A DNA stretch of 64,000 bases from an uncultured bacterium (lineage in GTDB: Bacteria; Patescibacteriota; Microgenomatia; UBA1400; PJMF01). The stretch spans positions 3,166-67,165 of the forward strand of contig CAIMNJ010000011.1 in NCBI GenBank assembly GCA_903842795.1. Reading direction: 5' to 3'. Both the position numbers and the translations under genes were made by a program. This document shows positions 1,138 to 43,240 of this stretch, piece after piece (the stretch's first letter is position 1; the number at the start of each line of letters is the position of its first letter). The notes beneath the pieces are model-generated. The model was not told the origin of the DNA. It did not search any database and worked only from the letters and a program-made list of their open reading frames with translations.

Positions 1138-2187
1138 ATGTTCAAAAGTCTTTCAAGTAAAATTGCCATTGATCTTGGTTCATCCAAGATCAAGATTGTT
1201 GCAATCGATGATCTTAAAAATGAAGTTTGGGAGCTTTCACCAATTGATTTTAGAGCTAAAGTTTTAGAAGAAGATGCTTGTTTAGCCATAAAAAAAGAGG
1301 GCGATATTTTATTGGCAATTGGAAAAGAAGCTTTGGCCATGAAAGGTCGTTTGGATGGCGCAGCTGAAGTGTTTTTTCCATTTCATCAAAGTCGTATTCT
1401 TGATGAAAAAGCAGCTAAAATTTTAATAAAAGAATTACTCAAGAGGGTTTTTAAAAAAATGATTTTAAGTCCAATAGTTATGGTTACCACTACGGCAACT
1501 GCAACTAATTTGGACAAAAAAATTCTTAGTCAATTCTTTTATGATCTTGGTTTTTCTAAGGTTAATTTGATTGCTTCGCCTTTGGCTGCAGCGATTGGTG
1601 CCGGTGTTCCGATAATTGATTCTTCAGGAACTCTGTTTTTACAGATGGGGTCTAGTGGAATGACTTGCAGTGCTATTTCAATGGGTTCTTTACTATTTAA
1701 TGAAGAAAGCGATTTTGGGGGAGACAAAATATCAAAAAAAATAATTGAACACCTAGCCAAAACTGAAAATTTTTCCATTTCTTTAGAAAGCGCAGAGTTA
1801 TTAAAAAAACAAGTTTTTTCTTTAGATGATTCCAACAAAACTTTTCCTGTGGTAGGAAAAACAATCAATGGCTTTAGTCCTTTAGAGTTGAAGATAAAAT
1901 CTTCTGATCTAAAACCGGTTGTCGATCTTTTTAAAATCGAATTAAAATCTTTAGTTGAAGCTATCTTAAAAAAGATTCCTCCTGACCTGATCACTGATGT
2001 TTTGCAAAAAGGTTTGTTGTTGTCTGGTGGACTCGCAAAAATCAATGGTTTAGAAGATTTTCTTGTCGCCACATTCAATTTCCCAATTGCTCTGTTAGAT
2101 GAGCCAGATTTGCTAGCAAGTATGGGCAGTGCGGCTATGTTGAAAAATATGAATATGTTTGCCGAGAGCTTATCTTTTGACGCTTAG
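1138..2187 (+). CDS. mreB: Divergent MreB-like actin homologue (rod-shape protein family)
   Basis: 349 aa. 'IASPLAAAIGAGVPI' matches the MreB 'EEPMAAAIGAGLP' signature. The N-terminal 'IAIDLGSSKIKIV' corresponds to the MreB phosphate-1 motif, and 'LLSGGLAKINGLEDFL' to MreB 'LTGGGALLRNLDRLL'. Confidence 0.6.
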   Translation: MFKSLSSKIAIDLGSSKIKIVAIDDLKNEVWELSPIDFRAKVLEEDACLAIKKEGDILLAIGKEALAMKGRLDGAAEVFFPFHQSRILDEKAAKILIKELLKRVFKKMILSPIVMVTTTATATNLDKKILSQFFYDLGFSKVNLIASPLAAAIGAGVPIIDSSGTLFLQMGSSGMTCSAISMGSLLFNEESDFGGDKISKKIIEHLAKTENFSISLESAELLKKQVFSLDDSNKTFPVVGKTINGFSPLELKIKSSDLKPVVDLFKIELKSLVEAILKKIPPDLITDVLQKGLLLSGGLAKINGLEDFLVATFNFPIALLDEPDLLASMGSAAMLKNMNMFAESLSFDA

Positions 2188-3534
2188 CCACCAATTGCTT
2201 TGGCGACAAAGAATTTTGCCTGCATCTTCTTCGTTTAGCATCATTTGTTTAATTGCTTCCTCCAAAAAAATTGTATTTTGCGAGCCTTTAACTAAAATTA
2301 GGTCATTGGCTTTTAGTAGATTGGCAATTTTTTCTCCAGCAATTTTTGAATTTTCAAAAAATATGGTTTGATTTTTATTATTTACCCTCATGATGGGTAG
2401 AGCATACTTTTTCATTTCTTGTCCAACTAGGAAAATTTGATCAAAGCTTTTTGAAGCTAATAGCGCTATTTCTTCATGCATTGCTTGAGTTTCCTCTCCA
2501 AGTTCCCTCATGTCTCCAAGTAAAGCTAATTTTCTGCCCTGGTTATTTACTTTATTCATTAATTCAATCATGTCCTTCATGGAAGAGGCGTTATACGAGC
2601 TATCTATAATAGTTGAGTTATTTTTTCCTTTGATTGCTGAAGCTCTCCCAAGAGGAATGGAGAAGTTATTCTCTAGGGAATTTTTTATTTCTTCTGTACT
2701 AAGTCCTGCTTTTATTCCAATTAAAATAGCCGGTGCCAGGCTGTAAGCGTAATGTTTTGGTAATAAAAAATTATTAATTTTGATTGTTAATTTTTGATTT
2801 TTGATTTTTAGCTTGCCATAGTGGCTTTGAATTTGAAAATTAAAAGTGGTGTTAATTATTTTGTCCAGAATCTGTGGTTGATGCTCAATTATTTGCAAAT
2901 CACAAAAGCTATCGCTTCCAAAAGAATAGCTTTCTGCTTTTGTATTTTTGCAGCTTTCCTTGACATTCAGATCATCAAAGTTCAAAAAAGCTAAACCATT
3001 TTTTGGCAAAGATAAGATCAACTTGGCTTTTTCTTCAGCAATTTTCTTTATAATTTGTTTTTTTCTTTCTTTTGGTTCTTGCTCAGAAACCAATTGATCA
3101 AAAGCAAAGCTGTGATTTACGTTGGCATTGAGAAAAACTGCCATTTTGGGTTCGATAATGCTAAGCAAAAAATCCATATTCTTAGGTGGATTGGGACTAT
3201 CTATGCCCATTTCTACTAAGTAGTAATCAAACTTTTCAAAATTAGTAAGCAATTTAATTGGAGCCATAAATAAGACTCTTAGCCAATCTAGAACAGAATA
3301 ATTCTTCATTTCTAATCCTAGAATATCCAATGGAATTCCTGACTCAGAATTAGCTTTAAAACTTGCTTTTACCTGATACTTGTTTTTTAGAACGCTGTAT
3401 ATAGCATTGCGGGTGCTGCTTTTGCCGGCACTACCGGTGATTCCAACAATGTTGCAATTCTTATTCTTTTTCAGTTGCAGTTTGGCAAAAAACCTTAAGT
3501 AATAAAGGACAAATAATGCTGCTTTTTGCTTCAT
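2170..3534 (-). CDS. murF: UDP-MurNAc-tripeptide--D-Ala-D-Ala ligase
   Basis: Mur ligase P-loop 'GITGSAGKSST'; MurF-type 'DSSYNASSMKDMIELM' (DDSYNANP motif); 454 aa. Confidence 0.85.
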   Translation of the reverse strand: MKQKAALFVLYYLRFFAKLQLKKNKNCNIVGITGSAGKSSTRNAIYSVLKNKYQVKASFKANSESGIPLDILGLEMKNYSVLDWLRVLFMAPIKLLTNFEKFDYYLVEMGIDSPNPPKNMDFLLSIIEPKMAVFLNANVNHSFAFDQLVSEQEPKERKKQIIKKIAEEKAKLILSLPKNGLAFLNFDDLNVKESCKNTKAESYSFGSDSFCDLQIIEHQPQILDKIINTTFNFQIQSHYGKLKIKNQKLTIKINNFLLPKHYAYSLAPAILIGIKAGLSTEEIKNSLENNFSIPLGRASAIKGKNNSTIIDSSYNASSMKDMIELMNKVNNQGRKLALLGDMRELGEETQAMHEEIALLASKSFDQIFLVGQEMKKYALPIMRVNNKNQTIFFENSKIAGEKIANLLKANDLILVKGSQNTIFLEEAIKQMMLNEEDAGKILCRQSNWWLSVKR

Positions 3535-6236
3535 CTTTGACTTTCTTTTTTTTGTTCATCTTCCTTAATCTTTTTTGCTGCTTCGCAAAAAGCTTTACCT
3601 CTTTCTTCGTAATTAGCAAAGCTATTGAAGCTGGCGCTGGCAGGACTTAATAATACAATGTCCCCAGAGTTGGCTTGCTTGTGAGCTGTGTCCACAGCTT
3701 CAGCAATTGTTTCTACCTTTTGAACTAATTGAGCGGGATTGTTTCCTAGTGTAAATTCAATTAATCTGGCTCCAGTAGTTGGTAGAGCGATTAACAACTT
3801 AACTTTATATTCAGCAATAATTTGAGCCAATTCGCTAAAATCTTGATTTCTTTCATAGCCGCCAGCAATCAGAATAACTGAACCCTTTGCAAAACTTCTG
3901 ATAGCCATCATGGCGGAATGGGGATTTGTAGAAATTGAATCATTAAAATATTTAACTCCATTGATTTCTGTTACAAATTCAATGCGATGTGGTAGACCAC
4001 GGAAATTCTTAATAGTTTTCTCAATTGAGTGATTTGTTGCCTCAAATAACTTCCCAACTAAGATTGCAGGCATAACATTGTAGAGATTGTGTTCTCCAAG
4101 AAGAGGAATGTCTTTGATTGCAATAATCTCTTCATTTTGGTAAAAGATTTTGTCATTTTTTTTGTAGACAAGTATTTCCTCATCTTGTTTTAAGTCGTGT
4201 CTGAGTTTTTTTGCAATACTGAGTTTTGCCATTTGATTGCTACCAGATAGCTTTGGGTTATAAATCAGATAATCATTTTCTTTTTGGTAGCGGGCGATAG
4301 CGGTTTTGGCTTCAAAATAACTTGCAAAGTCTTTGTAGTAATCCAAATGCTCTGACTTTATATCAAGAACTACTCCAACATGTGGACTATCGGTAAGTTC
4401 AGCTAATTGGTGACAAGATAATTCATCAACAATAAGTGTGTCTTTAGAAATTTTATCTAGCTGATTTAATGGAGCATCACCAATATTTCCAAGTAATATG
4501 ACTTTTTTTCCAGCGTCGCGCAAAATTTCATAGGTCAATTTACTAGTGGTACTTTTGCCTTTGGTGCCAGTAATACCGATAATTGTGCCCTGACATAAGG
4601 TAAAAAATATTTGTGTGTTTGATAAAATTTCACTTCCTTTGGCAATTGCTTTGGCAATTTCTTTAGTAGTAATTGGAATACCGGCTGTTTTGATAATGAT
4701 TTCGTATTGGTCAATTTTTTCTAGATAATTTTTGCCGAAGTAAGTTTTAATATTTTGGTCTTTGCTAAACGATTTTTCATGCTCATCTGCGATGGCGATT
4801 TGTTTATTTGGAAATTTTTTTCTCAAGAAATCAAGGGTTGATATCCCTTCGCGTCCCATGCCCAAGATAAGAACTGATTTTTTAGAAAGTTTATCCATCA
4901 ATTCTGTTTCTGCAATTTTTTGTTTGATTTGTTTTAAAAACATTGGTGGTGACTTGCTTTTTTTGTAGGCTAATACCAATGCTTGGCGAACTTCTGCAAA
5001 TGTGCCAACGCATTCAAAGGGTTTTTTATTTCCAAAGCCAGCTAAATCTAAAAAAGTTTGTTTTAGTGATTTTTTGGCAAAGAGATTTTCACTAAAAATT
5101 TTATTGCTTACAATTTCTTCTTCCAAGAACGCTGAAAACATGGTGTAGACGAAAGCACATTTTGGACAATCTTGGCACCAAATTCCTTTTTTTTGTCCGA
5201 CATTGCAACTCCTTAGAACTTCAAGAATTTTTTCAAATCTTTTGTCTTTAGTAGCGAATTGGCATAATCTTTGTGCGATTTCCAGTTCTGACAAAGATCT
5301 TAGTAGGGACAAATATTTTGGAAAATCATTTTTTTCTGAGAAAAGTTGTTCTTGACTATATTGGCTGAACTTTTTTTCAAAATCCAAGCTTTTAGAATAT
5401 TGGTGATTAATTTTTTGTCCCAAATAAATAAGATTTTCTTCCTCACTACTGGCTTCATTGCCAAGTAAAATATTTTCTTGACCATAAAGATAAGCAATAG
5501 ATGAGCCGGCAAAGGCAAGATAAGAGCTAAATGGAGTATGACCATTTAAATATCCTTGTTTATTCATTTCCAATAAGGTTGGATCGATGCTGCGCTCAGC
5601 TTCAATAATATTTTTACAATAACCATTTTTTTGTAAAATTAGAGCAATCTCTTTGGCTGCGGCAGAGTGTGGAGCAAGTAAAAATATATCGTAAGGCAAT
5701 TTCCTTTCTTCTATCATGGCTAAAACTGTAGAAGAGTCTTTTCCTCCGCCAACTGGTACAAGAATAGAGGAATTTTTTGGTGGATTAAATTTTGTTGTTA
5801 ATCCTTCTATTTCTGATGTTTTTTCTAATTTTATTTTAATGAAATCTTCTTTTGTAAAGTCAATTTTGTTTTGATAATAGAATTCACCAAGACCCTTAAT
5901 TAGGAGATCATGCCAAAAACTTTTGTTTTTTTCTGTAATTTGTCCTTGATGTTTAACGACTATTTCTTTTGGGCAAGCAACTTTGAAGTAGCTTGGAATT
6001 TCAGCCATTCCAAGATGAAAGAATAATTTGTTTAATTGCGGGTCTAGGGTTTCTTTGGTGGAAATTTGATTAATTATTTCTTGACTTATATTTTTGATTT
6101 TTAATTTTGGGTAAAATTTTATATTTGGTTCGAGTTCAAGGTCAAAAGTCAAAATCAGATCATTGTTTTCTTTTTTAAAATCAAATCCCCAATAAATCAG
6201 TCTAGGATGTTTTTTTCTTAAACTTTTGATGTCCAT
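3531..6236 (-). CDS. murD: UDP-MurNAc-L-Ala--D-Glu ligase (MurD) carrying an N-terminal ~470-aa PP-loop-like domain
   Basis: The C-terminal half has MurD motifs 'GITGTKGKSTT', 'LLGNIGDAPL' and 'ELSCHQLAEL' (ELSSFQL), plus an N-terminal Rossmann 'ILGMGREGIS'. The N-terminal half has 'VPVGGGKDSSTVL' (an SGGxDS-like PP-loop) and a 'CNVGQKKGIWCQDCPKC' Cys cluster. Start is placed at MDIKSLRK (6236) rather than ORF-track 6320, to avoid overlap with the divergent gene starting at 6297. Confidence 0.75.
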   Translation of the reverse strand: MDIKSLRKKHPRLIYWGFDFKKENNDLILTFDLELEPNIKFYPKLKIKNISQEIINQISTKETLDPQLNKLFFHLGMAEIPSYFKVACPKEIVVKHQGQITEKNKSFWHDLLIKGLGEFYYQNKIDFTKEDFIKIKLEKTSEIEGLTTKFNPPKNSSILVPVGGGKDSSTVLAMIEERKLPYDIFLLAPHSAAAKEIALILQKNGYCKNIIEAERSIDPTLLEMNKQGYLNGHTPFSSYLAFAGSSIAYLYGQENILLGNEASSEEENLIYLGQKINHQYSKSLDFEKKFSQYSQEQLFSEKNDFPKYLSLLRSLSELEIAQRLCQFATKDKRFEKILEVLRSCNVGQKKGIWCQDCPKCAFVYTMFSAFLEEEIVSNKIFSENLFAKKSLKQTFLDLAGFGNKKPFECVGTFAEVRQALVLAYKKSKSPPMFLKQIKQKIAETELMDKLSKKSVLILGMGREGISTLDFLRKKFPNKQIAIADEHEKSFSKDQNIKTYFGKNYLEKIDQYEIIIKTAGIPITTKEIAKAIAKGSEILSNTQIFFTLCQGTIIGITGTKGKSTTSKLTYEILRDAGKKVILLGNIGDAPLNQLDKISKDTLIVDELSCHQLAELTDSPHVGVVLDIKSEHLDYYKDFASYFEAKTAIARYQKENDYLIYNPKLSGSNQMAKLSIAKKLRHDLKQDEEILVYKKNDKIFYQNEEIIAIKDIPLLGEHNLYNVMPAILVGKLFEATNHSIEKTIKNFRGLPHRIEFVTEINGVKYFNDSISTNPHSAMMAIRSFAKGSVILIAGGYERNQDFSELAQIIAEYKVKLLIALPTTGARLIEFTLGNNPAQLVQKVETIAEAVDTAHKQANSGDIVLLSPASASFNSFANYEERGKAFCEAAKKIKEDEQKKESQR

Positions 6237-6296
6237 AAACTCATTATAGCTTATATAACTGCGACTGTTGATGAAAAAACCTGATAAAATCAAACT

Positions 6297-7070
6297 ATGA
6301 AAGTTATGCAAACAAGTCAAATTTTTGGTTTTCCAATCCTTAGTGTTAGGAAACAGGAATTCTTTGATTCTTTGGATAGCTTTTTTTTAGAAAATAGACG
6401 AGACAAATCTCTTACCCTAAAGATTTTTACACCAAATCCCGAACAATTGGTTGTTGCTACAAATGATAAAATTTTTTCTTCAAATTTGTCCAAAGCAAAT
6501 TATCTTTTACCAGATGGGATCGGTTTGGTTTATGCCTCAAAAATTTTGAGTTTTTTTGGCAAAACTAAAGAAAAAATCAAAGAACGCATTGCTGGGGTAG
6601 AGGTGGTAGAGCATTTGCTTGACTTGATTAAAGAGCAAAAACTAAAAGCCTTAATTATCGGTGGGAGAGATTACAGTAATGCTGAAGATGTAGAATTTTC
6701 CTCCAATCTCTTCTGGACAGAGGGATATCAGGATAAATTTGAAATTTTATCTACTGAAGAAGCTGTTTTGACAGAAAAAATTAATGAGCTGAAACCAGAT
6801 TTGGTTTTTATTGCCTTTGGAGCTCCAGATCAGGAAAACTGGATTATTAATCACGAAAAATTATTAGAAGAAAACAAAGTTAGAATTGCCATGGCAGTTG
6901 GAGGCTCATTTGATTTTATTTTCAATAGAGTCAAGAGAGCTCCAGTTTTTGTTCAAAAACTTGGCTTTGAATGGCTTTGGCGCCTCATAAAACAGCCATG
7001 GAGAAGACACAGACAATTACGCCTACTCAGTTTCATTTGGCTGGTTATTAAGGAAATTTTTAAGCGTTAG
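6297..7070 (+). CDS. WecB/TagA/CpsF-family glycosyltransferase (N-acetylmannosaminyltransferase-like)
   Basis: 'FTPNPEQLV', 'LPDGIGLVYASKIL', 'IAFGAPDQENW' and a C-terminal 'WLWRL' are typical of the TagA/WecG family; 257 aa. Confidence 0.75.
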   Translation: MKVMQTSQIFGFPILSVRKQEFFDSLDSFFLENRRDKSLTLKIFTPNPEQLVVATNDKIFSSNLSKANYLLPDGIGLVYASKILSFFGKTKEKIKERIAGVEVVEHLLDLIKEQKLKALIIGGRDYSNAEDVEFSSNLFWTEGYQDKFEILSTEEAVLTEKINELKPDLVFIAFGAPDQENWIINHEKLLEENKVRIAMAVGGSFDFIFNRVKRAPVFVQKLGFEWLWRLIKQPWRRHRQLRLLSFIWLVIKEIFKR

Positions 7071-13026: not shown

Positions 13027-16000
13027 ATGAATCAAGAAGCCTCCGCAATCGTTGAAGAATTATTACAAAAAGAACGCAGCCTTAGCGCACTAAAGAATGC
13101 TGAACAACAAGCCGGAACAGGTTCTTTTATTTTTTCCGATGAAGCAAATCTGTTTAAAGGAGAACCGTCTGCCGAACTTATGGATGTGGTTGGTAGACTT
13201 AATGCCAGAGGAATAAATGTTGCAATTTTTACTTCAGACAATCCAGATAATTTAGAAACATCAGCCCTAAGAGATCAACTCACCCAAGCTAATGGTTTGG
13301 GTAGTTATTCTGATGGAACGCTGCAAGTCAATACTTTGGCCTGTGTCTGGAACAATAAAACAACCGATGGAAGAAAAGAATTGGATTGTGTTACCGGCGC
13401 TGGTATAGGCAGATATATTGGAGATTCTCAAGTTAATAGTTTAGTTAATCATGTTGTTGATGAGGGTTATTATGTTGACGATTTCAGTGCAGGATTTACT
13501 AATGGTTTGACTGAAATCGATCAAATCTTGGCAGCCAGGGAAGCTCAGGCTACTCAACAAGCAGCTCAACCAACAGCTACTCCTTATGCTGAAACTGACA
13601 CTACTCCAATAGAAATCCAGCCTTCAGAATCTCGTCCAAACTTTATGGAAACTCATGGCAGAGAAGTTTATGGTGGTGTGACAGCAGTAATTTTAATGGC
13701 TTTGGTTGGGGCTGATCAGATGTTTGCCAAACCAAAGCGTCTTTTTGTTAAGGGTATTGAATCAGACAGAAGGTCGGCTTTGAATGAAGCAACTAAGTTG
13801 AATTTAGATTTTGGAAAGGGTCTTTCTCTTTTTGATGCAATTATTTCAGAGTACGGTGAGTCTTATCCTGAAAAAGCAAATCAAGCCAGAGAAGATCGCT
13901 CTGTTTTTTCGGAAAAAGTAGATGAAGTTAAAGCTGCTGCTGAAGAGCTAAAATTAGCAAAAGTTGGTTTTTTCCGTAAAAAAGAAGACATGGAAGACGT
14001 AAGAGTAGCTGCTAAAAAATTGCGCACTAAAGCGATGGAATTATTGCGCTTAATAGGCGATCAAAGCAACAAGGCAGAAGATCTGCAAGAGAGAAAGAAC
14101 TCTGCCCGCACCAATGCTGCTGCCGCCAAAGAGAAGCTGGCTGAAGTTAAAGATGTTTGGTATGTAGAAAAATTCAAAGTTTTTGGAGAGATCTTGCCAC
14201 CAAAAGATAAGGCCATGGTCGGTATTGAATCTTTGGCAAAAGAAGCTTTTGATAATGCCTACTACAATACAGCCCTAGCCCTCAAAGGTAATGATCAGGC
14301 TGTTGAAGTGCTTGGTTTGTTAGATAAGTTTATGTTGGCAGTTGGTGCTTTGACCAGTGGTTATGAAATTGCTGATGGATTATATAGAGATGCTGGTTCG
14401 GACATTGCGAAGTGGCCAAATAAGGCAATTGATCTCAAGCAATTGGCTAATTCTGGAATACAGTTACTGACTACTGCCAAAGCAGGTATATCGATCACTG
14501 AAAAGCTTGATGAGGTGATTAGGTTATCTAAAGCAGCTGAGGTGGAATTTGCAAATGCTAAGGATTTCTCTAGTGCAACTGCTACTATTTTGAAACAGCA
14601 AGATGAAAATGATGCGGCAATTGCCGAAATTGAAGAAAAAGGTTTTGAAGATAAACATATTAAAAAGTTCCGTGACGCTATGGTTGAAGCTCTTAGTAAA
14701 GCTAATGTTTTTGCTTCTCAAGGCAATTGGAAGGAAGCGCATGCTCAACTTGGTGTTTTAAGAGTGAAAACCAATGAATCTCTTATTGAGATGAAGCGCT
14801 TAGAACAATTACAAAAACAAAATATTATTGATTTGGAAAATCTTGCCAAGGAGGTGGAAAAAGACAAAAAACGCTATGCCGGTGAGACCACTAAAGCTTG
14901 GACTGATTTGAGTGAAAATTTTGTGCCAGCTAACTACGATGAAAAGGACAAAATTTGGAAAGAGTTGAGAGAAGGATCTGGGTCTGGTGAAAAAATAGTA
15001 ATTGCCGACCTCAATCCATATTTTGCAGCAATTGCTTTGACTCTCAAAGAACTAACTGATGATAAGTCAGACGAAAACGATATTGCCAGTAAAGCTTCTA
15101 GTAGAAATTCTTTTGAAGAACAAAAGTTTGATGAATCTGCAACTCTAATTCGAAAAATGGAGAAAAGGTTGGCAGAGTCTCGTCAAATGATGGATGCGCT
15201 ATTAGAGCGTCAAAAATTAGCCAACAAATCAAAGTCCGAATATTCTGCAGCAATTGTTAATTCATCTGCCCGTCTGGAAGCAGCTGAGGAATCAATTGAT
15301 ACGAAAGAAGAAAACCGCTTAGTAGATAAAGAGGTTGATGAGCAGATCAAGAATGCCAGAAAATTTATTGATTTGGCAGAAAGAGCCGGCAAAGCTTCTA
15401 TATACGTTGCTGCTTTGGAAGCAGCCAATAGAGCGACAGATTTAGCAATAAGAGCAAGACAAAGCGCTGAAGCACAGATAAAAGCTCTCAAAGAACTTTA
15501 TTCAAAACTAGAAAGTCATAAAAAGAGTAGTAATGCTGCTGCCAACAAGGCTATTCAGGCTGTAATAGATGAATCAGATGAAGTAATTACCTCTGCTACC
15601 ACAAATATTCAGAATGCTTTGCAAAGAAGTTTGGCAGCTTTGGTTACGGCAGAAAGTGCTTTAGCTGCTAAAGAAGACCATGTCTTGTCTAAGGCAATAG
15701 AAGATCTTTTAGGTGATCTTGATCAGGTTGATGAAAAAACAGAAGAGCTTGAGCAGGCTTTCAAATCTGATCGCAATAGCTATCAAGATTTACTTGATGA
15801 TTTAAAGAGAGCTATTGGTGATGCTGATTCAGCTATTAGTAGAGCTAGTTCAAAGTGTAATGACCCTGATGCCGGTTCTGCCGGAGATGGAGCCCTAGGC
15901 TCAGCCAGGTCTTCTAATCCAGACATGGCAAGTTGGGGGGAGTCTAGATCTAGTATTAAATCAAAAATACAAGCTGCTAAGCGTGCTGAAGATTATGCTG

Positions 16001-16173
16001 ACAGCGCTTATAATCAGGCTAGCAGCGCAATTTTAGCTGCTGAGCAAGCAAGACAAAGAGAACTAGAAAGACAAAGAGAGGCGCAGAGAGCTAGGGAGAG
16101 AGCTGCTGAACAAGCGAGAGAAGCTAGCAGAACCGTTAATTCTGTTGGTGGACATGCTAGTAGGAAAATCTAA
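13027..16173 (+). CDS. Large (1048-aa) coiled-coil-rich hypothetical protein
   Basis: An N-terminal ~230-aa globular region and a hydrophobic segment 'GGVTAVILMALVGADQMF'. This is followed by ~800 aa of heptad-like charged helical sequence (E/K/A/L-rich). The C-terminus is 'RQRELERQREAQRARERAAEQAREASR'. Confidence 0.6.
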   Translation: MNQEASAIVEELLQKERSLSALKNAEQQAGTGSFIFSDEANLFKGEPSAELMDVVGRLNARGINVAIFTSDNPDNLETSALRDQLTQANGLGSYSDGTLQVNTLACVWNNKTTDGRKELDCVTGAGIGRYIGDSQVNSLVNHVVDEGYYVDDFSAGFTNGLTEIDQILAAREAQATQQAAQPTATPYAETDTTPIEIQPSESRPNFMETHGREVYGGVTAVILMALVGADQMFAKPKRLFVKGIESDRRSALNEATKLNLDFGKGLSLFDAIISEYGESYPEKANQAREDRSVFSEKVDEVKAAAEELKLAKVGFFRKKEDMEDVRVAAKKLRTKAMELLRLIGDQSNKAEDLQERKNSARTNAAAAKEKLAEVKDVWYVEKFKVFGEILPPKDKAMVGIESLAKEAFDNAYYNTALALKGNDQAVEVLGLLDKFMLAVGALTSGYEIADGLYRDAGSDIAKWPNKAIDLKQLANSGIQLLTTAKAGISITEKLDEVIRLSKAAEVEFANAKDFSSATATILKQQDENDAAIAEIEEKGFEDKHIKKFRDAMVEALSKANVFASQGNWKEAHAQLGVLRVKTNESLIEMKRLEQLQKQNIIDLENLAKEVEKDKKRYAGETTKAWTDLSENFVPANYDEKDKIWKELREGSGSGEKIVIADLNPYFAAIALTLKELTDDKSDENDIASKASSRNSFEEQKFDESATLIRKMEKRLAESRQMMDALLERQKLANKSKSEYSAAIVNSSARLEAAEESIDTKEENRLVDKEVDEQIKNARKFIDLAERAGKASIYVAALEAANRATDLAIRARQSAEAQIKALKELYSKLESHKKSSNAAANKAIQAVIDESDEVITSATTNIQNALQRSLAALVTAESALAAKEDHVLSKAIEDLLGDLDQVDEKTEELEQAFKSDRNSYQDLLDDLKRAIGDADSAISRASSKCNDPDAGSAGDGALGSARSSNPDMASWGESRSSIKSKIQAAKRAEDYADSAYNQASSAILAAEQARQRELERQREAQRARERAAEQAREASRTVNSVGGHASRKI

Positions 16174-22203: not shown

Positions 22204-22276
22204 GCCTTTGTAGCTCAGTCGGTAGAGCGCAGTCTTGGTAAGACTGAGGTCTCGGGTCCGATCCCCGACAAAGGCT
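22204..22276 (+). tRNA. tRNA-Thr (anticodon GGU)
   Basis: Cloverleaf by eye: acceptor GCCTTTG/CAAAGGC, D-arm GCTC-AGTCGGTA-GAGC, anticodon stem CAGTC/GACTG with loop TTGGTAA, T-arm TCGGG-TCCGATC-CCCGA. CCA is not encoded. Confidence 0.85.
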
Positions 22277-22313
22277 CACTTGCAAAGGCGCGCTGCGCGC
22301 GCCATCTGCAAAA

Positions 22314-22395
22314 GCCAAGGTACTCAAGCGGTCAACGAGGGCAGTCTGTAAAACTGCTGGCCTAGCCTACGTAGGTTCGAATCCTTCCCTTGGCA
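22314..22395 (+). tRNA. tRNA-Tyr (anticodon GUA), class II with long variable arm
   Basis: Acceptor GCCAAGG/CCTTGGC, anticodon stem GCAGT/ACTGC with loop CTGTAAA, long variable arm, T-loop TTCGAAT. Confidence 0.8.
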
Positions 22396-22424
22396 CAGAT
22401 CTCTAGCTTACAAAGGGAGAATTT

Positions 22425-22498
22425 GCCCCCCTAGCTCAATTGGTTAGAGCACCTGTTTTGTAAACAGGAGGTTCCGGGTTCGATTCCCGGGGGTGGCT
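22425..22498 (+). tRNA. tRNA-Thr (anticodon UGU)
   Basis: D-arm GCTC-AATTGGTTA-GAGC, anticodon stem CCTGT/ACAGG with loop TTTGTAA, T-arm CCGGG-TTCGATT-CCCGG. The acceptor stem has one C:U mismatch. Confidence 0.8.
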
Positions 22499-22548
22499 CA
22501 AGAGATGACTCTTAAAATATAAAAAAGTTGTGATAAAATATCAAATCT

Positions 22549-22787: not shown

Positions 22788-24260
22788 TTAGTTTAGTTTT
22801 ACTATTTTCAGAATATTTTCCGCTCCGTGATAGAAGTCATGATCAAGCTGTCTACTGTTTTTCATGGCTTGTCCAATCCAGGATCGCTGTTCATTTGCTT
22901 TTAATTTAGGTACAGGCCTGGTCCCGCCAGCTGGAATTGCGCTTTCGGAAGTATGCTCATTGGTCTGAGCGAGTTCAGTTAATTGTTTAGCAATATTGTT
23001 TGTTTGAGCTTGTATTGCTGTGCCATTTTTTTCAAAAACTGCACGTACGTTATATTCCCACTCACCCCATTCCTTGAGAGTGAGTAGAGCAGCTCCAGAA
23101 GCGACTGCGTCGTAGGCCATGTCTCCAGAAGGCTTGCTGATAAAAACATCGGCCCAAGAAAAGCCTTTTTGAATCAATAATTCATTAGCATCAACAATTT
23201 GTGGATGATAGATAATTCTAAAGCGATGCTTATTTTCTTCGTTTTTACTGGTTTTGATCTTGTTATTAATGCCAAAATTGGCAGGGTCATTTGGGCTAAT
23301 GATTTGATAAGCAAGGTCATTAGCTTGAGCAATTTCAATGGCCATATTTTTATGATCTTCATGGGTGCCGGCATAAAAAACCAATTGGGTCTCGACTAAA
23401 TCAGTTTTTTGTCCCAAGGCTTGTTGCTTTAGTATTGGCAACATTTGCTCCAAAATGCTTTTTATTTCTGGTTTATTAGTGCCAAGGCCACCGGTAGTTA
23501 AGCAAATTCTAAGTGGTCTTTCGTCTGTCCAAATTGTTTTTTCTTTGTGGCAATCGACTATTCTTGGGTCAATTGGTGGGCCAGTGACAATGACTTTGTC
23601 TTTTATTTGGTCCTTTGGTATTTTTTTGCCAATTTGTTTGGCAACTTCAAAAAATGATTCTTTGGTGGCTTCATCAAAGACCAAAAATTTCATATTTGGC
23701 AAATGTGCATTTTGCAAATAATCGCTACGCACGTGTGGATCTGTGATCATTTGCACAACTTTTTTACCCTCTGCAGCTAGAATATTGCCCGTCACAATGT
23801 GAAAGGAAAGAATGGTTTTTTTGATTCCAGAACCAAGATAAAGAGTGGGAGGAGTGACATTATCTAAAATTGGCATTTTGGAACGGCCGAATTTATCGAC
23901 GATATCTTTTAACATTTTTAAAATTGGCCAGCGAGCAATAGTTCTGCCAATTAAATCTGTTATTTGTACGCTTTTAAAAGCGGCGTTGCTGACGTAATTA
24001 GTGCTATCTACAAGCCAAGCTTTTTTAGGATCAATGCTATTTCCCCAGGCTTGTATTGCTATGCCGAGAGCCATGGAGTAGTGAGCGCGTGAAAGCACAA
24101 TGTCGGTACTATTGTCTTTTTCTTTTTGATGATGAAGACCCTTGAGGTCTTCTCGAAAGGAAGCGGAAACAGTGATAATGGGAATTTTGGTTTGTTCGAG
24201 GAGTTTTTTGTCTGCTTGGTAAATCTTTTTTAATTCTTTGGCGATTTCATTATCTTGCAT
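22788..24260 (-). CDS. GT-B glycosyltransferase, family-28-like (MGDG synthase/UgtP/MurG-like C-terminal domain)
   Basis: 'WADVFISKPSGDMAYDAVASGAALLTL' resembles the GT28 C-terminal donor-binding motif. The ORF-track start at 24401 would read through tRNA-Trp, so the start is moved to MQDNEIAK at 24260. Confidence 0.6.
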   Translation of the reverse strand: MQDNEIAKELKKIYQADKKLLEQTKIPIITVSASFREDLKGLHHQKEKDNSTDIVLSRAHYSMALGIAIQAWGNSIDPKKAWLVDSTNYVSNAAFKSVQITDLIGRTIARWPILKMLKDIVDKFGRSKMPILDNVTPPTLYLGSGIKKTILSFHIVTGNILAAEGKKVVQMITDPHVRSDYLQNAHLPNMKFLVFDEATKESFFEVAKQIGKKIPKDQIKDKVIVTGPPIDPRIVDCHKEKTIWTDERPLRICLTTGGLGTNKPEIKSILEQMLPILKQQALGQKTDLVETQLVFYAGTHEDHKNMAIEIAQANDLAYQIISPNDPANFGINNKIKTSKNEENKHRFRIIYHPQIVDANELLIQKGFSWADVFISKPSGDMAYDAVASGAALLTLKEWGEWEYNVRAVFEKNGTAIQAQTNNIAKQLTELAQTNEHTSESAIPAGGTRPVPKLKANEQRSWIGQAMKNSRQLDHDFYHGAENILKIVKLN

Positions 24261-24365
24261 GCTTTTTAGTGTAGCAGTTTTTTGGTGGTGGAGGAAATGA
24301 TGATGCGTTAGCTCTGGCTTTATTGAGCAATGATTATTATAATTGGGCTCTAAGAAATTTAACAA

Positions 24366-24436
24366 AGGGCGGTATTTCAATGGCAGAATAGGGGTCTCCA
24401 AAACCTTTGATGAGGGTTCGATTCCTTCCCGCCCTG
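24366..24436 (+). tRNA. tRNA-Trp (anticodon CCA)
   Basis: Acceptor AGGGCGG/CCGCCCT, anticodon stem GGGGT/ACCTT (two G:U pairs) with loop CTCCAAA, T-arm GAGGG-TTCGATT-CCTTC. Confidence 0.75.
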
Positions 24437-24462
24437 CAAAAAAATATTCAAATTGTAAAACG

Positions 24463-42463: not shown

Positions 42464-43240
42464 ATGAATGAGATAGCGTTTGATGCTTCAGAGCAAATTA
42501 AAACGATTGTTTCTTTTTTACAAAAAACTTTTGCCGCAACTGAAAAAAAACAGGCAGTAATTGCTGTTTCTGGAGGAATTGATAGTGCTTTGTCTTTATC
42601 TCTATTAGTTAAGGCGTTGCCAAAAGAACAAATTTGGCCAATTCTCTTGCCATATGATCGCCAGGATATGAGTGATGCTCAAAAGATTTTGGATTTTTGG
42701 CAGATTCCGGCGGAAAACAGAAAAATTCTCAACATTGCCTCTATGGTGGATGCTGCTTGTAAATCTTTACAAATAGAACCTTCAGATAAGCTTAGAAAAG
42801 GCAATGTCATGGCTAGAGTTCGTATGATTGCCATTTTTGATTATGCTAAGTTTAAGAATGCTTTGGTGGTGGGAACAGAAAATAAGTCTGAGTACTATTT
42901 GGGTTATTTTACAAGATTTGGTGATGAAGCTTCCGATCTTGAGCCTTTATCAACTTTATACAAGACGCAAGTGCGAGAGTTGGTTATTGAATTGGGTTTG
43001 CCAGCAGTTTTTTTAAACAAAGCTCCTTCAGCTGATTTATGGAAAGATCAAAGTGATGAGATTGAATTTGGTTTTGATTATGCTTTGGCAGATCAAGTTT
43101 TAAATTATTTATTTGATCAAAAAAAAGAAGCAGCTGAAATTCCGTTAATGTTTCCTGAACAACAGCGACTTTTAGCAAAAAAAGTTTTAGAAAGAGTGGA
43201 GCAAATGGCATTCAAGCATCTGGTGCCTTATCATCTATAA
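42464..43240 (+). CDS. nadE: NH3-dependent NAD+ synthetase
   Basis: PP-loop 'AVIAVSGGIDSALS', 'MARVRMIAIFDYA' and 'GTENKSEYYLGYFTRFGD'. Confidence 0.9.
   Translation: MNEIAFDASEQIKTIVSFLQKTFAATEKKQAVIAVSGGIDSALSLSLLVKALPKEQIWPILLPYDRQDMSDAQKILDFWQIPAENRKILNIASMVDAACKSLQIEPSDKLRKGNVMARVRMIAIFDYAKFKNALVVGTENKSEYYLGYFTRFGDEASDLEPLSTLYKTQVRELVIELGLPAVFLNKAPSADLWKDQSDEIEFGFDYALADQVLNYLFDQKKEAAEIPLMFPEQQRLLAKKVLERVEQMAFKHLVPYHL

Follow-up and report, generated by a model that had tools for sequence, protein, structure and literature searches.

What does a MurD-type ligase do when its chain begins with about 450 residues that belong to no canonical Mur ligase? This question is raised by one gene in a 64,000-nucleotide (nt) stretch of DNA from an uncultured bacterium of the Microgenomatia (Patescibacteriota; contig CAIMNJ010000011.1, positions 3,166–67,165 of the forward strand), which as a whole is called the window here. 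The gene lies on the minus strand (3531–6236) and encodes a protein of 901 amino acids with two distinct halves. In Xanthomonas oryzae, MurD2 ligates L-glutamate (L-Glu), not D-glutamate (D-Glu), and MurL (XOO_1319) requires just ATP and Mg2+ and yields the D-Glu product (PMC8788868; PMC5808125). The window gene very probably (probability about 0.85) encodes both functions in one chain, that is, a bifunctional enzyme that would bring D-Glu into the stem peptide of peptidoglycan without free D-Glu, by MurD2 ligation followed by MurL epimerisation. The pathway as such has been described before, but the accessible literature does not extend to the single-chain architecture, the fold assigned to MurL or the wide phyletic spread. 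In the literature searched, no paper ties MurL to a QueC or PP-loop fold, and none reports a fusion of MurL with MurD2.

The N-terminal half is established by sequence profiles as a homolog of MurL. The NCBIfam model NF041275 (MurL) matches residues 68–424 (E = 4.3e-55, 187 bits), and the same model reaches E-values down to 1e-92 in other fused proteins. Precomputed annotations place PF26299 (MurL_N) and PF26298 (MurL_epimerase_C) on the homologs, among them the 99%-identical P0121 and every other fused homolog. By these families the half divides into a beta-rich N-terminal subdomain (about residues 1–150, positions 5787–6236, minus strand, boundary approximate), in which E79, Y83, K85 and N123 are invariant, and a catalytic part (about residues 151–430, positions 4947–5786, minus strand) with a QueC-like PP-loop core, a cysteine knuckle and a helical tail. 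An earlier sequence-only reading of this DNA had suspected a link to the Xanthomonas MurD2/MurL route but left the homology unestablished, and had said that its proposal would fall if no profile of a PP-loop or adenylating family matched this half significantly. The NF041275 match and the two Pfam families on the homologs now supply that link. The non-Mur part exists as that reading had stated, although its length is about 450 residues (positions 4881–6236) and not about 470. Other searches with this half were negative. The Pfam scan of the whole protein gave it no significant match, with DUF6395 as the only non-significant one and no QueC family. A single-sequence phmmer search against the PDB sequences returned nothing meaningful (BaiE, E = 0.056; UspF, E = 0.78), and neither the sequence search nor the fold search found a MurL structure in the PDB copy. 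Reviews state that MurL "lacks known conserved domains" (PMC8788868; PMC5808125).

The fold of the MurL half was predicted with AlphaFold2 from a 62-sequence alignment, and the model has a predicted local distance difference test score (pLDDT) of 94.4 and a predicted template-modelling score (pTM) of 0.93. When the model was compared with the PDB by Foldseek, QueC was the top match (3bl5, E = 3.5e-5, target TM score 0.67), followed by QatC, Cap9, TtuA, NMN synthetase, GMP synthetase, MnmA and argininosuccinate synthetase. NAD synthetases, asparagine-synthetase-like proteins and a nitrile synthetase are also among the nearest folds. The MurL family profile matches TtuA precisely at the PP-loop (E = 1.2e-4), where "LvpvgGGKDSavt" is aligned with LVAVSGGKDSAVT. 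In the window protein the PP-loop segment is VPVGGGKDSSTVL (residues 160–172, positions 5721–5759, minus strand). It contains the motif GGGKDS (residues 163–168, positions 5733–5750, minus strand), which comes directly after the modelled strand 158–161, aligns to the SGGKDS of TtuA and is predicted to form the loop that binds the beta- and gamma-phosphates of ATP. The motif [G/S]GGKDS is conserved in 82 MurLs from many phyla, and 8 of them, including proteins of Actinomycetota, Proteobacteria and Acidobacteria, have the canonical SGGKDS. The model and the motif together indicate that the MurL half has a QueC-like PP-loop ATP-pyrophosphatase fold with a predicted adenylating site. The PP-loop resemblance noticed in the sequence-only reading is thus borne out by the fold match, the TtuA profile match and the conserved motif. 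In the PP-loop family, the first substrate is AMPylated and a nucleophile then attacks (PMC13376578).

The MurL half also has conserved cysteines. Four of them form the cluster C344-x9-C354-x2-C357-x2-C360 (CNVGQKKGIWCQDCPKC, residues 344–360, positions 5157–5207, minus strand), which is predicted to be a structural zinc site of the QueC/QatC type, as had been guessed before. QueC and QatC share a four-cysteine zinc motif of the form C...CxxCxxC that is thought to be structural, with C332, C352, C355 and C358 as its residues in QatC (PMC13376578). All four cysteines of the window protein are invariant in 82 of 82 MurLs and in 51 of 51 diverse fusions. Cys409 in the motif KPFECVG (positions 5010–5012, minus strand) is likewise invariant in the 82 MurLs and the 51 fusions, and it is a speculative candidate for the catalytic acid/base of the inversion at C-alpha. 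The short list of invariant polar residues in MurL consists of H233, H278, K282, C409, E261 and R215. Compared with QueC, Cap9 and QatC, the MurL half has the same PP-loop Rossmann-like core and the same C...CxxCxxC motif (with zinc in QueC and QatC), and the chemistry of all of them would start with adenylation of a carboxylate. In contrast, the sequence identity is only about 17%, MurL has an extra N-terminal domain of about 150 residues and is extended by helices at the C-terminal end, it acts on a UDP-muramyl dipeptide, and the predicted reaction is epimerisation with hydrolysis rather than amide or nitrile formation or protein conjugation. The window also encodes a NAD synthase (42464–43240, plus strand; PF02540, E = 3.6e-58), which is a second, conventional PP-loop enzyme unrelated to the fusion.

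The C-terminal half (residues 453–901, positions 3534–4880, minus strand) is a Mur ligase with three domains. The Pfam scan identified MurD-like_N, Mur_ligase_M and Mur_ligase_C on residues 453–866, which is a MurD-type architecture. The NCBIfam model TIGR01087 (murD) matches residues 455–888 (E = 4.9e-103) with 345.6 bits, above its cutoff of 211.95, and solved MurD structures match this half with E-values from 1e-63 to 1e-42 (best 3lk7, E = 4.9e-63). The ATP-binding P-loop GITGTKGKSTT (residues 554–564, positions 4545–4577, minus strand), of which GxTGTKGKS is invariant in the 51 fusions, the GNIGDAPL motif (residues 583–590) and the ELSCHQL motif (residues 605–611) are all found. The reading frame and the motifs quoted in the sequence-only reading are present where it had placed them. 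That reading had called this half an unambiguous MurD. Membership of the MurD family stands, and the type is better described as MurD2 for the reasons below.

To assign the type, the protein was aligned with E. coli MurD (chain 2jff_A, in which the numbering is native + 1). Glu629 (positions 4350–4352, minus strand) corresponds to E. coli Asp182 and X. oryzae MurD2 Glu197, and Arg796 (3849–3851, minus strand) corresponds to E. coli Lys348 and X. oryzae Arg358. Both would be determinants of L-Glu specificity. In X. oryzae MurD2, Glu197 and Arg358 control the specificity, and the E197D/R358K double mutant turns to D-Glu (PMC8788868). Ile768 (3933–3935, minus strand) takes the place of E. coli Lys319, and the K319T mutant of E. 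coli MurD gains acceptance of L-Glu (PMC8788868). Two further positions differ in their likeness. Ala868 corresponds to E. coli A414 and is MurD-like (Pro433 in X. oryzae MurD2), whereas Phe870 corresponds to E. coli L416 and is MurD2-like (Phe435 in X. oryzae). These two are weak markers, because P433A and F435L leave the stereospecificity of MurD2 unaltered (PMC8788868).

The same residues recur in the relatives. Among the 51 fusions, the Lys348 position is Arg in all 51, the Asp182 position is Glu in 44 and Asp in 7, and the Lys319 position is Leu in 29 and Ile in 22. In 75 MurDs that are fused or adjacent to MurL in 80 reference genomes of many phyla, Arg was observed at the Lys348 position in 74 and Glu at the Asp182 position in 71; the Lys319 position was Ile in 48, Leu in 26, Ala in 1 and Lys in none. 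In contrast, Lys319 is kept in all four aligned canonical MurD structures (E. coli, S. agalactiae, A. baumannii and P. aeruginosa), and three of the four have Asp182/Lys348, the streptococcal one having Thr/Arg. Because the Glu/Arg pair is present and Lys319 is gone, the alignment assigns the ligase half to the MurD2 type and not to canonical MurD. The loss of Lys319 looks like a robust extra marker of MurL-linked ligases.

From the two halves a reaction course can be proposed. Homology and the marker residues suggest that the MurD2 half would ligate L-Glu onto UDP-N-acetylmuramoyl-L-alanine (UDP-MurNAc-L-Ala), with ATP converted to ADP and phosphate. In the MurL half, ATP would be held by the PP-loop and the alpha-carboxylate of the terminal L-Glu would be adenylated, with ATP converted to AMP and pyrophosphate. 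Adenylation would acidify the C-alpha proton, so that the configuration could be inverted. The proton might be removed and returned directly, or the reaction might pass through an oxazolone that involves the preceding amide, as peptide chemistry suggests. Invariant Cys409, His233, His278, Lys282 and E261 are candidate acid/base residues, and the four-cysteine knuckle, which probably holds zinc, may stabilise the PP-loop core. The adenylation step fits the 1:1 ATP-to-AMP stoichiometry reported for the X. oryzae pair, which the PP-loop fold would explain, and the use of ATP would explain the reported one-way L-to-D reaction. The fusion would set a 1:1 ratio of both activities, and the L-Glu intermediate would probably be handed off directly. 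The full-length model would allow the two active sites to have a fixed position relative to each other.

A different role of the N-terminal half has to be weighed against this course. The ligase half might be an ordinary D-Glu-adding MurD, and the PP-loop half might carry out another modification, such as the NH3-dependent amidation of the alpha-carboxylate of the stem Glu to iso-glutamine. In Gram-positive bacteria, this amidation of the stem glutamate is done by MurT/GatD. PP-loop enzymes often adenylate a carboxylate that is then attacked by ammonia, the nearest folds include QueC, NAD and NMN synthetases, asparagine-synthetase-like proteins and nitrile synthetase, the family mechanism is AMPylation followed by nucleophilic attack, and the MurL match lies under the equivalog cutoff of its model, all of which could suit an amidating enzyme. 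However, the N-terminal half is in the same family as a biochemically defined epimerase (NF041275, E = 4e-55 and up to 1e-92 in the fusions; Pfam MurL_N/MurL_epimerase_C), and the characterised MurL forms its D-Glu product with ATP and Mg2+ alone. The ligase has the L-Glu-specifying Glu/Arg pair and no Lys319, which makes sense only with a following epimerase. In addition, a glutaminase domain is found neither in the protein nor adjacent to it. Amidation by the MurL half was rejected on the MurL family membership, the MurD2-type marker residues and the lack of a glutaminase domain, and we consider it very improbable. The sequence-only reading had proposed a coupled second reaction on the stem glutamate, by amidation or by epimerisation; the coupled reaction and its epimerising form are retained, while the amidating form is not.

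Several points weigh against the MurD2-MurL reading. The 187 bits of the MurL match are far under the 700-bit equivalog cutoff of NF041275. This cutoff appears to mark the Xanthomonadales clade rather than function, because every non-Xanthomonadales MurL scored reaches merely 226–311 bits (Actinomycetota, Proteobacteria, Acidobacteria, Firmicutes and reverse-order fusions), with 226–281 bits for the proteobacterial, actinobacterial and acidobacterial loci. The marker residues are not absolute, since Asp stands at the Asp182 position in 7 of the 51 fusions, Arg at the Lys348 position also occurs in the canonical streptococcal MurD, and the window protein has Ala where X. oryzae MurD2 has Pro at the A414 position. 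All activity is transferred by homology at about 30–40% identity, so we infer the catalytic activities, their stereochemistry, the metal content and the roles of individual residues. Substrate channelling is suggested by the fusion and by the compact predicted model. Neither a glutamate racemase nor a class-IV (D-amino-acid) aminotransferase was found among the scanned open reading frames (ORFs), but this covers the 64-kb window only and says little.

That the two halves are one gene was examined from the reading frame and from the homologs. The minus-strand ORF 3531–6320 is uninterrupted and gives 929 residues from an upstream TTG or 901 residues from the ATG at 6236, with the stop codon at 3531–3533. 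The ATG is the likely start, because homologs of 886–904 residues align from residue 1–3 of the ATG version. The base composition is even along the gene. The architecture is shared by full-length homologs of 886–904 residues with 62–99% identity, one of them 99% identical and from independent data, together with about 30 clusters down to 54% identity. The best 120 matches to the full-length query all have MurL and Mur-ligase domains in a single chain, with identities from 99% to 33%. These fused homologs come from NCBI, JGI, ENA and Logan assemblies, many of them independent, and in the complete genome CP011212.1 (853 kb) the fused gene lies in conserved synteny. An exhaustive HMMER search of 1.84 billion representatives gave the same picture and added proteins with the two parts in reverse order.

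Such a chain could also result from a frameshift in sequencing or from a faulty assembly that joined two neighbouring genes, as the sequence-only reading had warned. The nearest stand-alone MurL homologs have about 452 residues, murL and murD are separate and overlapping in a syntenic relative (L001), and a reference metagenome-assembled genome (MAG; L011) has the gene as two overlapping ORFs. However, the 99%-identical full-length protein from independent data, the about 30 further clusters at 54–74% identity, the complete genome with conserved synteny and the total of about 199 fused clusters refute a joining error by their recurrence, and its probability is negligible. The recurrence and persistence of the fused chains indicate that the fusion is genuine, has arisen more than once and has persisted. 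In L011 (GTDB MAG contig CAZBVY010000011.1, 4856–7822), the orthologous fused gene is 68% identical and is split within the MurL part; the split is either an assembly frameshift error or a pseudogene. A promoter and terminator scan around the fused gene of the window gave 13 matches against 17 expected from shuffled sequence, which is no signal above chance.

The junction suggests how the fusion arose. Residues 431–452 (positions 4881–4946, minus strand) are predicted to form one continuous helix, which reads ...AETEL-M447-DKLSKKSVLILGMGREG around Met447 (positions 4896–4898). The AlphaFold model of the full-length protein (pLDDT 93.9, pTM 0.87) is compact, with the linker as a single high-pLDDT helix of residues 432–452. 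In the relative L001 (an 865-kb contig), the gene order is that of the window, namely L10, L12, a helix-turn-helix regulator, a WecG-type glycosyltransferase, murL, murD, a MurF-like ligase, MreB and a PEGA protein. The murL (452 residues) and murD (470 residues) of L001 are unfused and overlap by 14 nt in different frames, the start of murD is at the place equivalent to Met447, and the unfused MurD has the same marker-residue pattern as the window protein. The fused form is found in L002 and L003 (74% identical) and in L004 (CP011212.1; 70–85% identity over the syntenic genes). Met447 is an apparent relic of the ancestral murD start codon, and a small frame-restoring change in an overlapping murL/murD2 pair is the simplest origin of the fusion. 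In other fusions, the linker at the junction has 0 to about 100 residues.

The same junction leaves room for two proteins still being made, with MurD2 started from the internal ATG of Met447 or released by proteolysis, so that the fusion would serve co-expression only. The ancestral murD start is kept in frame, the closest fused relatives share an ELM/LM junction, and the unfused state works in relatives. In contrast, no Shine-Dalgarno-like sequence was seen upstream of the internal ATG, more distant fusions have no junction Met or no linker at all, fusions recur in both orders and persist to about 33% identity, and the linker is a confident continuous helix in a compact model (pTM 0.87). Separate products have only a slim chance of being the rule, and a single bifunctional MurL-MurD2 chain is much the better description.

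The distribution of the fusion, which the sequence-only reading had proposed to examine, was determined from 368 retrieved proteins. They comprise 193 MurL-MurD fusions, 6 fusions in the reverse order (MurD then MurL; confirmed for P0257, P0312 and P0230), 122 proteins with MurL alone and 47 with MurD alone. The occurrence of both orders indicates that the fusion arose independently more than once. Fusions were found in Patescibacteria-type genomes and also in MAGs of Bacteroidales and Marinilabiliales (L075 and L079). The very long relatives (1,000–1,250 residues) have mostly linkers or insertions, one having an M20 peptidase and one DUF362. P0267 (1247 residues) carries a C-terminal Peptidase_M20 domain (residues 962–1244) after MurL-MurD and is a possible triple fusion. 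In a Muribaculaceae MAG (L035, 3122–5329, plus strand), the MurD2-type gene downstream of murL encodes 736 residues with a C-terminal DUF362 (E = 2e-49).

MurL as such is more widespread still. A search with just the N-terminal half gave over 6,000 relatives at E ≤ 1e-3 among the scored candidates, and at least 591 species that encode MurL were counted in a pattern scan that used one genome for each GTDB species. The lineages listed include Gottesman-, Roizman-, Beckwith-, Kerfeld- and Nealsonbacteria, Paceibacterota and Microgenomates, and further Bacteroidales, Oscillospiraceae, Lachnospiraceae, Bacilli, Acidobacteria, Rokubacteria, Bdellovibrionota and Proteobacteria. In 74 of 80 reference-genome loci, murL is either fused to a murD-type gene or followed by one on the same strand. 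A 2021 review places the pathway in "relatively few genera" (PMC8788868), and the spread of MurL is much broader than this. In the cultured rumen Firmicute Pseudobutyrivibrio xylanivorans DSM 14809 (L057, 5001–7644), murL is directly followed by murD with the markers Asp/Ile/Arg/Tyr, and the strain would be convenient for studying the pathway beyond the Proteobacteria and Actinobacteria. The taxonomic labels of MAGs in these records look unreliable. CP011212.1, the closest complete genome, bears the label "candidate division TM6", that of a similarly close protein is Woesebacteria, and among L005–L007, L011 and L030, several labelled "uncultured Pseudomonadales" or "Enterobacteriaceae" carry the loci most like that of the window, with L005 sharing its gene order.

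The window protein can be compared with several known systems. The X. oryzae pair MurL (XOO_1319) and MurD2 (XOO_1320) (Feng et al. 2017; PMC8788868, PMC5808125) belongs to the same two protein families, murL precedes murD2 in most loci examined, the Glu197/Arg358-type residues are common to both systems, and the MurL half matches the Xanthomonadales model (E = 4e-55). The differences are that the window protein is one chain of 901 residues with a short helical linker, that its host is an uncultivated small-genome bacterium and not a proteobacterium or actinomycete, and that the divergence is large (187 bits against a 700-bit cutoff; Ala instead of Pro at the A414 position), with the activity of the window protein predicted from its sequence. 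Characterised MurL/MurD2 proteins also exist in Micromonospora and Salinispora. Canonical MurD, which works with MurI or a D-amino-acid aminotransferase, has the same three-domain Mur-ligase fold. It takes free D-Glu and has Asp182 (Thr in streptococci), Lys319 and Lys348, whereas the window protein carries Glu/Ile/Arg and forms one chain with an epimerase, so that inversion is predicted to come after ligation and to cost a second ATP.

Fusions of Mur enzymes have precedents in NCBIfam, namely MurF/alanine racemase (NF008897), MurC/Ddl (NF011171) and MurE/MurF (NF008896), which join a Mur ligase to a supplier or processor of D-amino acids or to the next ligase. Their partner domains differ from MurL, and they match the window protein more weakly. 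No model for a bifunctional MurL/MurD2 protein turned up in the NCBIfam scans. The lipid II amidotransferase MurT/GatD also makes an ATP-dependent change at the alpha-carboxylate of the stem Glu and involves a Mur-ligase-like protein. In this system, however, MurT itself is the Mur-ligase homolog and acts with the glutaminase GatD on lipid II, without a PP-loop domain, and no glutaminase domain is present in the window protein or next to it.

The neighbouring genes show the setting of the fused gene. At its 3' side, with a 4-nt overlap, lies the gene of a MurF-like Mur ligase (2170–3534, minus strand; 454 residues), which is probably in the same operon and is conserved in L001, L002 and L004. 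TIGR01143 (murF) matches this ligase with E = 7.6e-51, but its 173 bits are below the cutoff of 288.6 and the match begins at profile position 116, so that the N-terminal domain typical of MurF appears to be missing. Further genes of the window encode MreB, MreC and a class-B penicillin-binding protein, and these genes together with the MurF-like ligase indicate that the organism makes peptidoglycan. Elsewhere in the window, a 1048-residue ORF (13027–16173, plus strand) has an N-terminal TPM-phosphatase domain (residues 37–166, E = 4.5e-5) and about 880 other residues with no Pfam match. A tRNA cluster of Thr-GGT, Tyr-GTA and Thr-TGT lies at 22204–22499 (plus strand). A tRNA-Trp (24366–24437, plus strand) overlaps the 5' end of the listed ORF 22788–24401 (minus strand), whose true start is probably further downstream.

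That MurD2 and MurL are naturally fused, and in both orders, provides independent "Rosetta stone" evidence from genomes for their acting as one functional unit, and the fused protein would be a convenient single-protein system for studying the hand-off of the L-Glu intermediate. The predicted fold, the loop, the four-cysteine knuckle and the invariant polar residues offer specific targets for mutagenesis and structural work on MurL catalysis. NCBI names the fused proteins of about 900 residues simply "MurD"; this label of a D-glutamate ligase is probably wrong on the substrate and misses half of the protein. The spread of MurL also affects metabolic reconstructions, in which "no murI" may be counted as a missing step of peptidoglycan synthesis. 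In reviews the pathway is restricted to a few genera and is promoted as a target for narrow-spectrum antibiotics; its occurrence in at least 591 species, among them many gut Bacteroidales and Clostridia as well as much of the Patescibacteria, changes this argument of selectivity. More tentatively, at somewhat under even odds, MurD2/MurL could be, instead of a rare route of Xanthomonas and some actinomycetes, a major and ancient D-Glu route in a large part of the bacteria, with many lineages of the Patescibacteria (candidate phyla radiation), Bacteroidales, Oscillospiraceae, other Clostridia, Acidobacteria and others, in which the racemase would be dispensable, the fusions would be channelling machines, and a QueC-derived MurL would invert the glutamate with Cys409 and the His and Lys residues.

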